A DNA stretch of 64,000 bases from contig OZ241865.1 of assembly GCA_965203275.1 (NCBI GenBank), positions 1,120,001 to 1,184,000 of the forward strand. The letters are read 5' to 3'. This document shows positions 40,070 through 59,046 of the stretch, in pieces; positions within the stretch are counted from its first letter, which is position 1; each line of letters opens with the position of its first letter. The notes beneath the pieces were generated by a model. It was not told the origin of the DNA, made no database searches, and saw nothing but the letters and a program-made list of their open reading frames with translations. The DNA is from Bdellovibrionales bacterium. Lineage in GTDB: Bacteria; Bdellovibrionota; Bdellovibrionia; Bdellovibrionales; JAUICD01. A program made the translations under genes and the position numbers.

Positions 40070-40188
40070 TGCTGGCATCGTGCTACTTTCCCACAACGAG
40101 GTCGTTGTAGTATCATCGCCGCTGGTGGACTTAACTTCTGAGTTCGAAAAGGGATCAGGTGTACCCCCACCGCTATAAAAACCAGCAA
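40070..40188 (-). rRNA. rrf: 5S rRNA (stand-alone)
   Basis: Minus strand GCTGGTTTTTATAGCGGTGGGGGTACACCTGATCCCTTTTCGAACTCAGAAGTTAAG...GGGAAAGTAGCACGATGCCAGC, with complementary ends. Confidence 0.95.
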
Positions 40189-45997: not shown

Positions 45998-46107
45998 GGT
46001 TTCTGTTTTTAATGTTTAACACTATGAAAATTTTAGGGCATTATCGAAGGGGATATTTTCATATAATCCAATAACAAAACAGTACACAGCAAATCAGAAA
46101 TAAAAAC

Positions 46108-46330
46108 CTGTCCCCTCTCTCATTTTAGACTATTATCCTATATTGATAGACCTTAGAAGGTATTTTTTGCAATGAAACTGTCCCGTTTTGTCCCGTGTTT
46201 TTTATAAAAAAGCTCTTTTTGATAGAGACGGGACAAAACAGGACAAAACAGGACATTGTACCGAGTAAAACATTAAATTATTATAGTATTATTATATATT
46301 TATAAAAAAACGGGACAACGGGACAGGGGT
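46108..46330. repeat. Direct and inverted (C)GGGACA / GGACA short repeats
   Basis: TGTCCC x3 (46108, 46179, 46189) and GGACA x5 (46231-46325). Confidence 0.75.
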
Positions 46331-46537
46331 TTGACTAATTTTACCTCTTGGGTATCTTTAAAAAAAAATCACTGGAAATTTTGAAACAATAAAGCTCCAC
46401 TTTTGCATTGCTTTGTACTTCTTAATTTTTATTTAAAGTTTGTGAACCACCTAAAAATTAGGGCTACCGTCACTTATGGTTATGATCATAGAAAGAACTG
46501 CAAGTCATAAATGCGGTCTATAAGTGTTGTATTGTTT

Positions 46538-46578
46538 CTATCGGCATCTATTGACAAAACTTTAATCTATGATAGTCT
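46538..46578. promoter_or_regulatory. Overlapping divergent promoters: sigma28-like (minus) and sigma70 (plus)
   Basis: Minus strand TAAA-N15-GCCGATAG (46564..46538); plus strand TTGACA-16 nt-TAGTCT with extended TG. Confidence 0.5.
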
Positions 46579-46584
46579 ATATAT

Positions 46585-46707
46585 AGCCTGTCTTCTGTTA
46601 TTGAATAACATGGCAGGGTTTTATTTCTACTTTGGTAGATAAGATGATTTGTAAATTTATAAGTTTTACATGCTCAAAGAGAGGCTAGCCAACTACCTCT
46701 TTTTTTA
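46585..46707 (+). ncRNA. Candidate structured small RNA or leader
   Basis: Upstream promoter, three hairpins including TATTTCTAC-TTTG-GTAGAT, and a terminator AGAGG..CCTCT with a T-run. Confidence 0.4.
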
Positions 46708-46761
46708 TTTGTAAGGATATATGAATATAAGATATAAGGTTAATATGAAAAAGAGGACATT

Positions 46762-47295
46762 ATGAGTGATGATGATTTTCCAAGCAATGGACCTACAAAA
46801 GAAAATGGCAATCCTTTAAAAGAATACTTTAAAGGAATTTTACCTTTCTTGCTACTGATTCTGAAAGAAATCAAGTCTAACTGGCCTTTATATTCAATAA
46901 TTTTGTTTGTGTGTTTTATCTTTCCACCACAAGACTACGGTTCTATTTCAACCATTATAGGTATTCTCTATATTCTTTTTAATGTTAAACTTATAACTCC
47001 AATAAAAAGTGAGATAAAAGAAATTAAAAAAGATGTTGAGAATACTAATAATGAGATAAAAGAAATTAAAAAAGATGTTGAGAATACTAATAATGAGATA
47101 AAAGAAATTAAAAAAGATGTTGAGAATACTAATAATGAGATAAAAGAAATTAAAAAAAATGTTGAGGATACTAATAATGAAATAAAAGAATTAAAGAGTA
47201 GTATTGATAAAAAATTTGAAGATGTAAGTATTGCTATCAAAGAGATAAATAATAACGATAAGTTTAAAAACAAGACGAATTCAAGTGATAATTAA
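46762..47295 (+). CDS. TM plus coiled-coil protein with 14-aa tandem repeats
   Basis: EIKEIKKDVENTNN x4 (42-bp units at ~47011-47190); hydrophobic N-terminal half. Confidence 0.75.
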   Translation: MSDDDFPSNGPTKENGNPLKEYFKGILPFLLLILKEIKSNWPLYSIILFVCFIFPPQDYGSISTIIGILYILFNVKLITPIKSEIKEIKKDVENTNNEIKEIKKDVENTNNEIKEIKKDVENTNNEIKEIKKNVEDTNNEIKELKSSIDKKFEDVSIAIKEINNNDKFKNKTNSSDN

Positions 47296-47477
47296 GATAA
47301 ACTTTCAAAGTCTTTTGTGGATATAATCATATCTTATTTAACACCATCAAAAACCCATCAGACCGCATGCTAAACCCATCAAAAACCCACTTTCACGATA
47401 TTTGACATACCTTAGTCTATTTGATATGATAATTGTAAGGTTTTGTAGAATTGGATTAATTTAACCAGGAGGTTATT

Positions 47478-47669
47478 ATGACTATGGAAGGAATGAGTAA
47501 CCAAATAGAAAGATTGAACATTGAGCTTAATTGTCTACAGAAGTTTAATGGTCACGCAAAGTTTAAAGCAAATGTAAATGATACACGCATAATAGCAAGA
47601 CAAGTGGAGCGTCGTCTTAATTTAATAAGAGAAATAGACGCGAACATGGAAGCAAACAAAGAGAAATAA
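47478..47669 (+). CDS. Small hypothetical protein
   Basis: RBS AGGAGG; upstream TTGACA..GATAAT promoter-like sequence. Confidence 0.55.
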   Translation: MTMEGMSNQIERLNIELNCLQKFNGHAKFKANVNDTRIIARQVERRLNLIREIDANMEANKEK

Positions 47670-47934
47670 GGGGGGAGTCCCACAGAGGCGGGGGCATGAT
47701 CACGCGAGGGTGGTCTTTACTCCATCAGGGTTTTATACTTCCTAACTTTTAGCATACCCCGGTCATTTTCAGATAGTTAAAACCGCTCTAATTTGAATAT
47801 CAGGATGCTGAAATCTCAAAAAAACATCAAAAACCCTCATTTTCACGACGCTTGATAGACAAAAGTCTATCTTTTTTAAAGTTTTTGCTGTATACAACCG
47901 AAAAAATAATAAATGATAAAAAAACGGGGGTTTT

Positions 47935-48333
47935 ATGAATTTGGAAGATACACCAGTTAATGGCGATCCGTCAGGATATGAATCAATCTCACAAAATAAT
48001 ACGAAGAAATCTTTTTTGTCATTTTTTGATTCTGATATTGTAAAAGCTATAGCATTTCTTTTAGGAACCCTGGGCAGTCTTTTTTTGATTCTTTTATTTG
48101 GTGTCGTTAGCGTTTCAGGGAGTTTGTACTTTATCGGCAACTTGTTAAATGCTCCTATTAAAGATCAAATGAGTGCAATTAAAGTGCAAGTAAATAGTAT
48201 TGAACAAAAATTTGATAGCATTGAAGTAAAATTAAACAATATGGATAAACAAAACAAAGCTATCATAGAGGGGTTAAAAAGTCAGGGTATTCAAGTTAAA
48301 TATCAAACGGCCAAAGATGGTGAGACCCTTTAA
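47935..48333 (+). CDS. Small TM plus coiled-coil protein, paralogue of 4359..4784
   Basis: KKSFLSFFDSDIVKAIAF...LNAPIKDQM. Confidence 0.75.
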   Translation: MNLEDTPVNGDPSGYESISQNNTKKSFLSFFDSDIVKAIAFLLGTLGSLFLILLFGVVSVSGSLYFIGNLLNAPIKDQMSAIKVQVNSIEQKFDSIEVKLNNMDKQNKAIIEGLKSQGIQVKYQTAKDGETL

Positions 48334-48344
48334 GGTTATAAGGA

Positions 48345-48373
48345 TTGAGTTTATCCAAAGAGGATGATATACT
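48345..48373 (+). promoter_or_regulatory. Sigma70 promoter driving the crRNA-like unit
   Basis: TTGAGT-17 nt-TATACT with extended TG; predicted start ~48380. Confidence 0.65.
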
Positions 48374-48379
48374 ATAATT

Positions 48380-48518
48380 AATTTCTACTGTTGTAGATTC
48401 ATATAAGTATAAGCAAGCAATTAACCATATCTAAAGATAGGGATTGACTTGTAAGTGGATATGAAAACTAAAGTTTCCATGATTCCATATTAAAAGAGGC
48501 CTTATGGTCTCTTTTTTT
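48380..48518 (+). ncRNA. Solitary Cas12a-type repeat unit / crRNA-like RNA
   Basis: Exact AATTTCTACTGTTGTAGAT at 48380-48398, then a unique segment, then a terminator AAAAGAGGCC-TTAT-GGTCTCTTTT (48492-48518). Confidence 0.7.
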
Positions 48519-48528
48519 AGGAGAAAAA

Positions 48529-48708
48529 ATGTGGTTCGCTTGTGTTATTTGGCTTTCGTATTTTTTTATTTTTATTCCTTTGCTAACCTATGTTGTTTCT
48601 TTAATGAATCCAAATCCAATCTGGGTGCTTGTCATTGGTTGCCTTTTGTATATAGGAGTTTTGGCCTTAATAGTTTACAAGCAAATAAATGATGGGAAAT
48701 GGAAATAA
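48529..48708 (+). CDS. 59-aa two-TM hydrophobic protein (not in the ORF track)
   Basis: RBS AGGAG; MWFACVIWLSYFFIFIPLLTYVVSLMNPNPIWVLVIGCLLYIGVLALIVYKQINDGKWK. Confidence 0.55.
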   Translation: MWFACVIWLSYFFIFIPLLTYVVSLMNPNPIWVLVIGCLLYIGVLALIVYKQINDGKWK

Positions 48709-48917
48709 ATTTTTTTATGTTGCCTTTTGAATTGGCATTTGGCTTTTTAGGACCGATCATCAGTAAGATTATCGGATTTTCAATAAGTATGTACTTTTAT
48801 ATATATATTTTTTGCTTACGACAAAAAACTAGAGATAATTGCTTTGTATGTATGCCTATATCTAACTTTGATTATTATGAGTTATGTGATGGTGTTTCTT
48901 ATGGGTATTGTATCTAA
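48699..48917 (+). CDS. Small hydrophobic hypothetical protein or fragment
   Basis: Overlaps the previous stop; hydrophobic N-terminal half. Confidence 0.3.
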   Translation: MEINFFMLPFELAFGFLGPIISKIIGFSISMYFYIYIFCLRQKTRDNCFVCMPISNFDYYELCDGVSYGYCI

Positions 48918-49100
48918 AATAAAATCATAACGGCCCTGTTTCTCAAAATGATACAAATTGCTGATATTTCTTAAAAATTTCTCAAATAATAGTTAAGTCC
49001 TGCTTAAATTTTCTAAAATCCTATATTTCCATAGTTTTTTATAATCTATATTAGGCTTGACTTTTCAGAAATATGATGTTGTAAAAAATTAGAGGTACAA

Positions 49101-49823
49101 ATGAAAAAATATATATTTGTCCTATTTATAATCTTGCTTGTTTCTAGTGATTCTCTATCTATGGGCCTATTGAGGACTTGTACTGAAGTCCTTATGCCAA
49201 ATTCAAAACAAAAAGTTATTGAGAGAGAATTATTGAAGCTAAATAATAGGTTATTAAATATTGTTTATACCGGTGAATCCCTTGTTCATGCCGGTGGCCG
49301 TATTAGATTGATAAAGAAAGTGCTAGAGGCTGGAGCTAACGTCAATTATCAAGACGACTATGGCTGGACGGCTTTAATGTTGGCTAGTGAGAATGGCTAT
49401 ATTGAAGCTGTAAGGGCATTGCTAGAGGCCGGAGCTAACGTCAATCTTCAAAACAAAAAAAGTCGCTATACGGCTTTAATGTTGGCTAGCCGTAAAGGCC
49501 ATATAGAAACTGTAAGGGCATTGCTAGCTTATGGAGCTAACGTCAATCATCAAGACAGATTTGGCAGTACGGCTTTAATTTGGGCTAGTTATGACGGCCC
49601 TATAGAAATTGTAAGGCTATTGCTAGCTTATGGAGCTAACGTCAATCATCAAGACAAAAAAGGCAGGACGGCTTTATATTATGCTGGTCGAGGTTATTTT
49701 GAAATTGCAATTGAAAGACTCTTAATCTCTCTTGACTTCATTCATTCTAGCATTCGTTCTCGTAGTCGAGAAGATTCTATCGAAATTGAAAGACTATTAA
49801 GAGAGGCCGGAGCTACAGAATAA
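49101..49823 (+). CDS. Secreted ankyrin-repeat protein
   Basis: Signal peptide; about four near-identical GANVN(H/Y)QD..G.TAL repeats. Confidence 0.92.
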   Translation: MKKYIFVLFIILLVSSDSLSMGLLRTCTEVLMPNSKQKVIERELLKLNNRLLNIVYTGESLVHAGGRIRLIKKVLEAGANVNYQDDYGWTALMLASENGYIEAVRALLEAGANVNLQNKKSRYTALMLASRKGHIETVRALLAYGANVNHQDRFGSTALIWASYDGPIEIVRLLLAYGANVNHQDKKGRTALYYAGRGYFEIAIERLLISLDFIHSSIRSRSREDSIEIERLLREAGATE

Positions 49824-49867
49824 TACCAATTCTATATTTGTCTCAAAATAATAATCTTTAGTCTTGA

Positions 49868-50170
49868 TTAAAGAATTTCTAATAAAAGATCGTCTAAGAG
49901 AGAATCACAACCCAATAAATGGTCGTCACTTAAGAGATAATCAGAGTCTAAAAGATACTCTAAGTAAAGATCATCGGCTAAAATACATTCGTCTAACGAA
50001 TGATCGTATCCTAAAGGTTTATCTAAAAAATACTCATTAAAAGGATAATCAAAACATCTATTTTGCTCAGGAATCACTACTACTATAGTAGTTTTAGAAG
50101 GATATAGCCAGAAAAGCACAGTGCTTATCAAAATCAAGATACCGATAATATTATTTTTTATAAAGCTCAT
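49868..50170 (-). CDS. Small membrane-anchored protein with an Asp/Leu-rich tail
   Basis: RBS GGAG; N-terminal TM; low-complexity DxLL repeats. Confidence 0.5.
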   Translation of the reverse strand: MSFIKNNIIGILILISTVLFWLYPSKTTIVVVIPEQNRCFDYPFNEYFLDKPLGYDHSLDECILADDLYLEYLLDSDYLLSDDHLLGCDSLLDDLLLEIL

Positions 50171-50311
50171 AAAGCTCCCATATCCATAAAATTCTTTTGA
50201 TATTTAGGCAAAGTCTTTCATAAAAATATCTACCATGCAAGCACTTTCCGTTTTAACATGTTGTGTTAGCAGGTTGCTTATTTTAACACGCCACTTCTTA
50301 AGTAAACCAAA

Positions 50312-50885
50312 GTGGGGAGACAGAGCTTGAATAGAATCAAACAATATGTAGCTTATTATCGAGTATCAACATCAAGGCAAACTATTGGCTTACAAACTCA
50401 AGAGACAATGGTTAAAACCTATCTTAAAGATAAATGGCCTCCTATTAAGTCATTCACAGAAAAGGAAAGTGGGAAGTGTGATAAGAATCGACCACAATTG
50501 CAATTGGCTTTGGAATATTGCAAACAATATAAGGCAACTTTGATCGTGGCTACATTGAGTCGGTTAAGTCGGGATTTGCATTTTATAACGTCCTTATCCA
50601 AATCTTAAGATAGATTTTGTATGTTGTGATATGCCTGATGCAACACCTCTGACAATAAACTTGATGGGAGCGATTGCTCAATATGAAAGAGAGACTGTAT
50701 CTAAGAGGACAAAAAGAGCTTTGGCAGAGTTAAAAAATCGTGGGGTGGAACTTGGAGCAAATAATCCTAAGGTTAAAGCTGGTCTTGAAAAATACCGAGA
50801 CAAACAAAAATACGTTTTTGTCCTAGTCTTGTCAAAAAAAATCAATAAATTGACGGGAGGGGACAAATGTCAGACAAAAAAATAA
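50312..50885 (+). pseudogene. Serine recombinase (resolvase/invertase), frameshifted
   Basis: YYRVST, ESG...RPQL and SRLSRD motifs, then a one-base shift at ~50606 to KIDFVCCDMP...ERETVSKRTKRAL...RGVELG. Confidence 0.85.
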
Positions 50886-51082
50886 ATAAAAAATCACAAA
50901 ACGCACCAAATCTTTTCATAAATTCTTATAAATTTGCCTTAAAGATGGTCGAGTTAGGCTTCGATGTTTTCTTATGCAATAAAGACAAAACACCCGCACG
51001 TAAGGACTCCTGGAAAGAGAATAAGCTGGAATATGACGAAATTCAAGAGATTCAAAAAAACCATAGACCGAACAAAGAATAG
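50867..51082 (+). pseudogene. Fragment of a bifunctional primase/polymerase N-terminus
   Basis: ALKMVELGFDVFLC..DKTP resembles the Prim-Pol start; RBS GGGAGG; only 71 aa. Confidence 0.45.
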
Positions 51083-51347
51083 ATGACTTGATCTTATCCT
51101 CTACAACCTAACAAATTTCTGATAAAGTATTGTCTGAAACTTGAAATGAATGACTATTTTTGGTACACATTCATAATGGCTCCTTTCTTTTTATTTTTAA
51201 AAGTTAATGGTTAATAAAATTTGGTTGGCTGAAATATGCCAACCAGGAGCCTTCTATCTTACATCTTCTCTAAGAAAAACTCACCGAATTATAGGACATG
51301 CTCTCAAACTCAGGCTTTATGTTAGATAAGAGTTCATTGAGGAGCTG

Positions 51348-58651: not shown

Positions 58652-58786
58652 AAAAGACAAAAGAGACCACAAGTGGCCTCTTTTGTCTAAATACATAGAA
58701 AAGATTTAGTGTCGTATCTACAGAAATTAATACATACCAACAGTAGAAATTAAATATAGTATCTCATCTTATTCGGATAAAATTAA
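58652..58786 (-). ncRNA. Second crRNA-like module (interrupted Cas12a-type handle) with promoter and terminator
   Basis: Promoter region homologous to 48340-48394; AATTTCTACTGTTG + 16 nt + GTAGAT; terminator GACAAAAGAGGCCAC-TT-GTGGTCTCTTTTGTC. Confidence 0.55.
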
Positions 58787-59046
58787 TCCTTAGGTTTCTT
58801 ATCCTGTTTGGTTAATTGATTCGATAGATGTTGTGCGAATAAGGTTACTATCTCTTTATAGTTTTTATTGTTTTCCTCTGACAATTTATCCACTTTATTC
58901 TCAATCTTACTGATTTTATTCTCAAGCTTACTGATTTGTGTCGGTAAATGATTAGATACTTGATAAATTAAATAAATAACTAAAGGAAAAATTATCGTGG
59001 AGCTATGTTCTAAAAACAAAGTATATAAGAGACTTGCTGTTGTCAT
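58783..59046 (-). CDS. Small TM plus coiled-coil protein (NHLPTQI family)
   Basis: RBS AAGGAGG; TM helix; NHLPTQISKLENKISKIENK. Confidence 0.75.
   Translation of the reverse strand: MTTASLLYTLFLEHSSTIIFPLVIYLIYQVSNHLPTQISKLENKISKIENKVDKLSEENNKNYKEIVTLFAQHLSNQLTKQDKKPKD

Follow-up and report, generated by a model that had tools for sequence, protein, structure and literature searches.

The window analysed here is a 64,000-nucleotide (nt) stretch of the genome of a Bdellovibrionales bacterium (GCA_965203275.1, contig OZ241865.1), equal to C1:1120001-1184000 of a single 2.57-Mb contig of 35% G+C; coordinates are window positions unless prefixed C1. Between its genes for a Na+/H+ exchanger and a glucose/sorbosone dehydrogenase lies a small island (about 46000-51100), and within this island, behind the gene for a coiled-coil protein of 132 amino acids (aa), is the short element that concerns us, at 48345-48518, here called unit B. 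It carries a promoter-like sequence, the 19-nt handle of a type V-A (Cas12a-type) CRISPR RNA (crRNA), a guide-like segment and a terminator-like hairpin. The feature is real and non-random, and it represents a known class in an unusual form. Its sequence is most readily understood as that of a self-contained crRNA-like RNA gene, a mini-CRISPR with one repeat, in the class of the RNA anti-CRISPRs (Racr), the CreR/Cracr RNAs and the solitary repeat units. The comparison with Racr and CreR/CreA-like RNAs that the original prediction had drawn from the sequence of the window is therefore the right one by anatomy.

Anatomy of unit B

The handle of unit B, AATTTCTACTGTTGTAGAT, is an exact type V-A handle, in which 5' AAUUUCUACU, a loop and GUAGAU form a hairpin with a 5-bp stem, and it is identical to the 3' part of the repeats in the genome's own V-A array. 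Its presence is far above chance: within the window, sites with up to three mismatches to it number two against 0.05 expected, with two or more in 0 of 100 shuffles, and the stem pattern TCTACNNNNGTAGAT occurs exactly twice against 0.01 expected. The TTGAGT-17-TATACT promoter is likewise present ahead of the handle as predicted, the handle beginning 6 nt past the end of TATACT, which is overlapped by a TATAAT (48373-48378). Unit B's promoter figures in the list returned by a consensus promoter scan. That scan as a whole did not exceed chance, its 23 sites comparing with 17.1 ± 3.8 in shuffles, and it is conservation among paralogues, in particular that of the -10 box, on which the promoter call depends. 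Transcription is predicted to start at or near the first base of the handle.

Downstream of the handle, the predicted guide-like segment and intrinsic terminator take the form of a stretch unique to this copy, a conserved 3' module and, finally, a predicted 10-bp hairpin with a U-run (Table 1). The terminator is missing from the list of a terminator scan, and folding was therefore used as evidence. A 141-nt unit B RNA folds at −37.8 kcal/mol (z = −4.35), a value that 0 of 200 shuffles reached. In the predicted structure the handle hairpin is followed by some 15 guide bases left unpaired, by another two hairpins and by the 10-bp stem (48492-48515), which runs into the U-run.

Unit B can be described as a variant V-A repeat with the TG-extended -10 box in its 5' half and the exact handle as its 3' half. 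By eye, both its 5' part (ATTGAG...TATAATTAATTTCTAC) and its 3' module (ATTGACTTATAAG...TTTCCATGATTCCATAT) resemble the full array repeat, the module looking like a degenerate second repeat, so that unit B may be a degenerate repeat-spacer-repeat mini-array, the first repeat of which has turned promoter. Copies of the 3' module without a handle are also found behind other coiled-coil genes. Public short-read contigs of the same organism, which occur in runs from at least two studies, end at 48369 and resume at 48489, the core having a depth of about 6x; they break at this point because the core is repeated, and the join across the unit lacks their independent confirmation.

A dispersed family of units and its surroundings

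A profile search of the whole genome (nhmmer, E ≤ 0.1) gave 25 matches, made up of six array repeats and 19 solitary units, and the stem-pattern scan, BLAST and the profile agree on this family. Unit B, taken originally to be solitary, is thus one of 19, three of which lie in the window (46622, 48380 and 58738-58792). It stands single nonetheless and not in a regular array, the nearest other handle being 1.76 kb away and the V-A array and cas genes about 0.92 Mb off. The units are of two sorts. Seven have the TGTT loop of the array, a handle matching at 18-19 of 19 positions and a unique insert before the conserved 3' module or terminator. About nine have other loops (TATT, as in the repeats of a congener, G001; TATC; and others), mutually related guides (AAAAyTCATrAT...) and, as read from the sequences, 17-28 nt, mostly 17-22 nt, from handle to terminator. 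This second layout is shared by an eighth TGTT-loop unit, at C1:1546817, a U.G stem variant.

Conservation within the family is sharply confined. Mean pairwise identity among the eight TGTT-type units, for which 0.27 is expected at random, is 0.97 in the handle and 0.81 in the -10 region (-24 to -5), falling to 0.41 in the -35 region (-45 to -25) and 0.32 upstream of it (-70 to -46); over the first and second 20 nt after the handle it is 0.29 and 0.27. Since flanks and guide are at the random level (27-41%), each copy has its own guide, with handle and promoter conserved. The -35-like hexamers, as read from the alignment, differ between copies yet are plausible and suitably spaced. Five stem pairs are kept in 18 of 18 aligned units (14 C-G, 4 U.G), with no double compensatory changes. 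The copies must be old or fast-evolving, because the coiled-coil proteins encoded just upstream of units are only 30-46% identical. A core of about 40 nt, comprising -10 box and handle, that stays constant amid surroundings at noise level argues for selection on a putative transcribed, handle-bearing RNA.

The coiled-coil genes form a genome-specific, expanded family of about 96 small open reading frames (ORFs) by iterated profile, a count that coiled-coil bias may inflate. Many encode a hydrophobic segment, and many occur in tandem runs of 7-10 (for example C1:209338-212474, 654134-659491 and 2207636-2211731); a unit lies within 260 nt downstream of 8 of the 96. The 132-aa protein found upstream of unit B, the gene for which lies 46 nt ahead of it, had no homologue but itself in a word search of 5.8 billion proteins and none in five relatives.

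The other units lie in similar small islands, with genes for ankyrin proteins, serine recombinases, Mutator- and YhgA-type transposases, HNH proteins and a D12 methyltransferase, and these neighbourhoods are set between housekeeping genes. Genes for an EH-signature protein and an SNF2-helicase-HNH protein (C1:954849-958579), which are Zorya-like, adjoin the paralogous pair of units at C1:958671 and C1:960072. Among 100 ORFs neighbouring units, none matched phage structural or conjugation-machinery families; the closest approach was a 123-aa ORF next to the unit at C1:437904, which matched a relaxase C-terminal domain weakly and in part. As to the decayed mobile element proposed at the outset, the island has a frameshifted serine recombinase gene and an ankyrin gene, with no phage or plasmid backbone.

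Two further units in the window illustrate how the family varies (Table 1). Unit A keeps the 5-bp TCTAC/GTAGA stem within its diverged handle TATTTCTACTTTGGTAGAT, the loop differing; it folds with z = −2.2, is matched by nhmmer at E = 0.0014 and has its paralogue at C1:958671. On its 5' side there is a hairpin with a U-run instead of a clear promoter. In the third unit the stem-loop is split by an insertion of 16 nt, beyond which come a guide-like segment and a terminator. The 59-aa ORF beyond unit B had no family match and, by tblastn, no second copy in the genome. An intact 246-aa paralogue of the split serine recombinase is found elsewhere (L028:9272-10012).

The surroundings show some further features. 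The ankyrin family of this genome is very large, a single tblastn query giving 216 segments, and its size fits a host-associated way of life. The 177-aa coiled-coil gene contains four tandem 42-nt repeats at 47010-47180 with the peptide unit KEIKKDVENTNNEI. Iteron-like inverted clusters of GGGACAAAAC/GGGACA words mark the left edge of the island (46150-46330). The only Rfam match in the window is a 5S rRNA gene (40070-40186, − strand), with no 23S or 16S gene beside it. Finally, an abundant genomic hairpin repeat sits inside CRISPR repeats, right after AATTTC or AATTTCTACT, and its insertions truncate the last repeats of arrays and of one solitary unit.

Table 1. Positions of unit B, its neighbours and related features (window coordinates unless prefixed)
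Feature	Position	Strand	Description
Unit B promoter	48345-48373	+	-35 TTGAGT 48345-48350, 17-nt spacer, TG-extended -10 TATACT 48368-48373
Unit B handle	48380-48398	+	Stem TCTAC/GTAGA, loop TGTT; 5-bp hairpin by folding
Unit B guide (spacer-like) segment	48399-48440	+	Unique to this copy; first ~15 nt predicted unpaired
Unit B conserved 3' module	48441-48491	+	GATTGACTTGTAAGTGG...TTTCCATGATTCCATAT; folds as hairpin
Unit B terminator-like hairpin	48492-48518	+	AAAAGAGGCC/GGUCUCUUUU and U-run, by folding
132-aa gene upstream of unit B	47935-48333	+	One hydrophobic segment, coiled coil; genome-specific expanded family
59-aa strongly hydrophobic ORF	48529-48708	+	GGAG 6 nt upstream; starts 11 nt past terminator
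Unit A	46622-46704	+	Diverged handle 46622-46640, guide-like segment, terminator hairpin 46676-46704
177-aa coiled-coil protein	46762-47295	+	Internal 42-nt tandem repeats; downstream of unit A
Third unit, disrupted	58738-58792	−	Same -10, first half of handle; nhmmer E = 6e-6
Ankyrin-repeat protein of island	49101-49823	+	Genome has a very large ankyrin family
Serine recombinase (resolvase/invertase)	50312-50885	+	Split into ORFs of 98 and 84 aa
Hairpin-repeat insertion in CRISPR repeats (congener G001)	L022:170-960		
Hairpin-repeat insertion in CRISPR repeats	C1:364060-364200		
Hairpin-repeat insertion in CRISPR repeats	C1:245680-245760		

CRISPR-Cas loci and possible targets

The original prediction had placed unit B without an array or cas gene, which is correct for the window and wrong for the genome. 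The genome-wide search it proposed, for Cas12- or TnpB-like genes and for more handles, turned up a Cas12a3 homologue, what is left of a cas12a and a V-A array, in addition to the 19 units. The V-A locus lies on the same contig (C1:235-246 kb). Its array (C1:245.3-245.7 kb) has six full repeats ATTGAAAGGGACTTATAAATTTCTACTGTTGTAGAT, the 3' part of which is the same handle, a truncated seventh and six spacers. An intact 1325-aa ORF stands head to head with the cas12a remnant, followed by a truncated cas1 (C1:235349-244285). The remnant, an ORF of 982 aa, matches the Cas12a model from position 327 to 1287 only and so is without the first ~326 residues, the N-terminal third, no remnant of which was found in the locus with a relative's Cas12a as query. 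The V-A cas1 covers its model from position 103 to 316 only. Querying the locus with a relative's Cas4 revealed no remnant of that gene, nor was a cas2 ORF noticed there, though no search aimed at cas2 was made.

The 1325-aa ORF aligns over its length to solved structures of Cas12a3 (PDB 21we, E 1e-71; 9hlx, E 2e-58); the other chains at E ≤ 0.1 were two oligopeptidases only, and none was named Cas12a or Cas12a2. It is matched neither by the Cas12a model nor by TIGR04330. Its alignments contain the RuvC I-III motifs GIDRG, ILEDLD and D..AAYNIA. By sequence it is a full-length Cas12a3 homologue and the only intact Cas12-family effector in the genome, and a cognate effector of the Cas12a family is thus encoded. 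Elsewhere in the genome no TnpB-like gene was found, the sole match of the Cas12f/TnpB-type zinc ribbon being the Cas12a3 gene itself. Cas12a3, an RNA-triggered tRNA nuclease, was reportedly described in 2026. It is described as cutting the 3' tails of tRNAs, preferring targets with a purine-rich flank and holding its crRNA via the same 5' pseudoknot as Cas12a (PMC12851939).

In congener G001 the corresponding genes are all intact and co-oriented: a Cas12a of 1407 aa, cas4, a full cas1 and a protein of 1334 aa that shares 50% identity with the Cas12a3 homologue. There the repeats number 59 at regular spacing and one more about 0.77 kb downstream. The genome under study also has a second system (C1:2266380-2278445), with a type II-B Cas9 (1476 aa, TIGR03031), cas4, a cas1 split into two ORFs and an array of 24 repeats of 38 nt. 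The third spacer of this array and the first V-A spacer have 26 of 28 nt in common, so that the two systems remember the same invader.

We searched for targets of the units at several levels. Genome-wide, with up to four mismatches allowed, the 20-nt guides of 18 units and the six array spacers hit within two mismatches only themselves or identical duplicate units, and the first 20 nt of the unit B guide have no other genomic target within three mismatches. The guide of the unit at C1:960072 (C1:960087-960106) is complementary to unit B RNA (48416-48435) at 17 of 20 positions, with mismatches at positions 6, 9 and 10 and a purine-rich flank, GAUAG, following; we judged it to be a segment that is shared or inverted, though one unit might instead target the other. 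Guide seeds flanked by a protospacer-adjacent motif (PAM) were at chance level genome-wide and, within 6 kb of units, were short, inconsistent and at chance level among the matches listed. In the four non-coding stretches of the cas locus scanned, 0 of 18 unit guides had a PAM-flanked seed of at least 9 nt. The longest seeds in those stretches (9-10 nt) belong to one unit, lie downstream of the cas12a remnant and are without a PAM. The suggested role as an antitoxin or regulator of the CreA/CreR kind hence found no backing, there being no PAM-flanked seed of at least 9 nt in a cas promoter or near unit B and, among the matches listed, none in a neighbouring promoter. One candidate, a 12-nt seed with a TTG flank shared by the guide of units C1:1744667 and C1:1884196, falls at the start of a gene that looks like mevalonate-diphosphate decarboxylase from a reading of its N-terminal sequence, and was judged to be chance.

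The guides gave only 8-11-nt, chance-level matches to 82 V-A spacers (from this genome and two relatives) and 24 II-B spacers, and in the converse comparison the spacers of three V-A arrays had no match on the islands of this genome. Searches for exact matches only found the 20-mer of the unit B guide 0 times in viral contigs, and promoter plus handle 0 times in public genome contigs and 0 times in viral contigs; the single exact metagenome match of promoter plus handle is the repeat that closes an ordinary array. Among the 40 further genomes of the order that were searched, two carry the handle, in arrays only, and none has dispersed units. The island has no syntenic counterpart in congener G001.

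Competing readings and comparison with known systems

How might a family of such RNAs act? Our tentative preference, held at somewhat less than even confidence, is that they are loaded onto the effector and act on it chiefly by competition or buffering. Transcription would begin on the first base of the handle or only a few bases away, leaving little or no 5' processing to be done. The RNA would be bound via its handle by the Cas12a3 homologue, and formerly also by Cas12a, and would be trimmed to the handle and a guide of about 20 nt. Competition between the 19 units and the six crRNAs of the array would then damp or buffer the activity of Cas12a3, by analogy with Racr. Occupancy of the effector by non-firing guides would be the likeliest outcome because no guide targets this genome or the cas promoters, and the intact Cas12a3 homologue beside a six-spacer array with the same handle is consistent with it. 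The units probably entered or spread with the recombinase- and ankyrin-bearing islands and with the lineage-specific coiled-coil gene family.

Several points weigh against competition or buffering. Transcription, its start site and loading are steps that we infer. Published inhibition tests of solitary repeats, in the account available to us, concern Cas12a and not Cas12a3 (PMC10651486). In 9-10 units the terminator follows the handle after 17-22 nt, as read from the sequences, which is the length of a guide; a decoy needs no particular guide, and this spacing is instead the layout of CreR and Cracr, where the guide matters. The core could also owe its conservation to gene conversion with the array repeats, and not to selection. 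Moreover, 'mobile element' is a weak description of the islands, because they lack phage structural and conjugation genes and the recombinase is broken, and a decayed element has no obvious need of an anti-CRISPR, yet seven copies keep 18-19 of the 19 handle positions.

It is possible, if unlikely, that the units are instead hard-wired immune guides, that is, working orphan crRNA genes that arm the Cas12a3 homologue against transcripts of phages or rival elements. Fixed guides would supplement a six-spacer array that can no longer grow, given the truncated cas1, the Cas4 not found in the locus and the cas2 ORF not seen in the same locus (cas2 itself not having been searched for). In every TGTT-type unit the conserved handle and 3' parts enclose a spacer-like segment peculiar to that unit, and in the three such units measured the insert is 21-32 nt long, against 26-28 nt in the array. 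The first ~15 guide nucleotides are predicted to be unpaired, the spacing of handle and terminator in 9-10 units, read from the sequences, is that of a guide, self targets are absent, as for immune spacers, and the effector is intact where the adaptation module is dead. That Cas12a3 is described as binding a Cas12a-type crRNA via the same 5' pseudoknot (PMC12851939), and that mini-arrays targeting rivals are described on mobile elements (PMC11656645), would also fit. Against this reading, no protospacer was found: the 20-mer of unit B had 0 exact matches in viral contigs (exact-only searches being weak evidence), the comparison with the 82 V-A and 24 II-B spacers yielding only the chance matches of 8-11 nt. 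Several guides are in addition related to each other or to the 3' module, and some have small duplications at the handle end, so that they look like drift from one ancestor and not like acquisition. The broader proposal of a selection-maintained 'germline' family of guide-RNA genes, each repeat being its own promoter, which hard-wires Cas12a3 against recurrent invaders or buffers this suicidal nuclease in a bacterium that has lost spacer acquisition and its DNA-cutting Cas12a, we regard as rather unlikely.

That the units are relics, the leftovers of decaying mini-arrays or CRISPR repeats dispersed by recombination or mobile DNA, without present function and kept similar by gene conversion, appears to us quite improbable. 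Decay is certainly in evidence, both in the cas locus itself and among the units: the one at 58738-58792 is disrupted by an insertion, a U.G wobble is found in four, and in several the loop is altered or the handle end duplicated. In this genus abundant hairpin repeats insert into CRISPR repeats, the 3' module exists in handle-less copies, and solitary repeats are described as often judged spurious (PMC10120712). Against relics stand seven copies that keep 18-19 of 19 handle positions and the -10 box amid flanks of random identity, a -35-like box and terminator in each, and a matching, intact effector.

A role in cis, as a regulator or guard of neighbouring genes, would make their expression depend on the presence of the effector. 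In one form, akin to 3'-untranslated-region processing, the upstream mRNA would lose its terminator hairpin when a Cas12a-family protein bound or cleaved on the 5' side of the handle; in another, akin to CreTA or CreR, the unit would keep a neighbouring toxin-like gene repressed, for instance the 59-aa hydrophobic ORF that directly follows unit B. At least 8 of the 19 units lie within 260 nt downstream of family ORFs, although such sequence makes up an estimated ~1% of the genome, in one copy the upstream gene ends in a stop codon that overlaps the -10 box, and the CreTA/CreR logic is described as established for type I and V-A systems. We nonetheless consider action in cis very doubtful, since no PAM-flanked seed exceeds chance in cas promoters, nor near units among the matches listed, the DNA-binding Cas12a is truncated, Cas12a3 targets RNA and its available description reports no repression of transcription (PMC12851939), the hydrophobic ORF has no paralogue at other units and 88 of the 96 family genes have no unit.

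The known solitary repeat RNAs are phage anti-CRISPRs or regulators inside cas loci, whereas here there are 19 dispersed, self-promoted units. Were they loaded, they might be the first natural RNA inhibitors or buffers of an abortive-infection nuclease of the Cas12a2/Cas12a3 type, or else a supply of guides independent of array and processing; if they proved to be germline guide-RNA genes, they would constitute an innate, array-free supply of CRISPR guides. The compact promoter-in-repeat design may itself serve for guide expression. If the units are relics, they document the decay of a V-A locus with persisting repeats.

CreTA RNA toxin-antitoxin guards have a guide that partly matches the promoter of the adjacent toxin gene. 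Unit B is like them in being a degenerate mini-CRISPR beside a small, putatively toxic gene and unlike them in that no match of guide to promoter was found among the matches listed and that the units lie outside the cas locus. In function, the units may be compared with RacrVA1-3, described as solitary V-A repeats with their own promoter, carried on mobile elements, that inhibit Cas12a (Camara-Wilpert et al. 2023, PMC10651486). Unit B shares with them a solitary V-A repeat with a promoter close upstream, a position away from cas genes and a proposed occupancy of the effector. Racr are described from phages and plasmids, often beside acr genes; here 19 chromosomal copies lie in small decayed islands with a broken serine recombinase, transposases and HNH genes, without a phage or plasmid backbone, and are tied to a host gene family, and the probable partner is Cas12a3 in place of Cas12a.

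In layout, unit B may be compared with CreR and the viral CracrVA1. Both are described as a single handle followed by a terminator after a guide of about 21 nt, and as repressing the cas12a promoter via about 10 matching bases, CracrVA1 maturing to a 19-nt handle and a 21-nt guide (Liu et al., 10.1101/2023.03.10.532045; 10.1101/2024.10.29.618823). Unit B has the same single repeat-like handle, its own promoter, a guide of ~20 nt and a predicted rho-independent terminator. Whereas the guides of CreR and CracrVA1 match the cas12a promoter at about 10 PAM-proximal bases, 0 of 18 unit guides do so, and in contrast to CreR, which is described inside the cas locus, the units lie 0.02-2.2 Mb from it. 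Conserved solitary repeats of unknown role are reported to adjoin many cas12a genes (Shmakov et al. 2023, PMC10120712). The present units resemble these in being stand-alone repeat-like sequences without a clear target; those described beside cas12a are weakly repeat-like, and ours differ in their exact handle, their dispersal and the promoter and terminator that each possesses. Viral and plasmid mini-arrays and solitary repeats (PMC11656645), as described, likewise lack cas genes of their own and use the effector of the host, each being a repeat-spacer(-degenerate repeat) unit, but the present units have no recognisable virus or plasmid backbone and occur in many copies in one chromosome. What is distinctive of this family is the number of units, 19 in one genome, together with their dispersal over the chromosome and their link to a single gene family; the repeat itself, moreover, contains the -10 box, and the only partner left intact is a Cas12a3 homologue.

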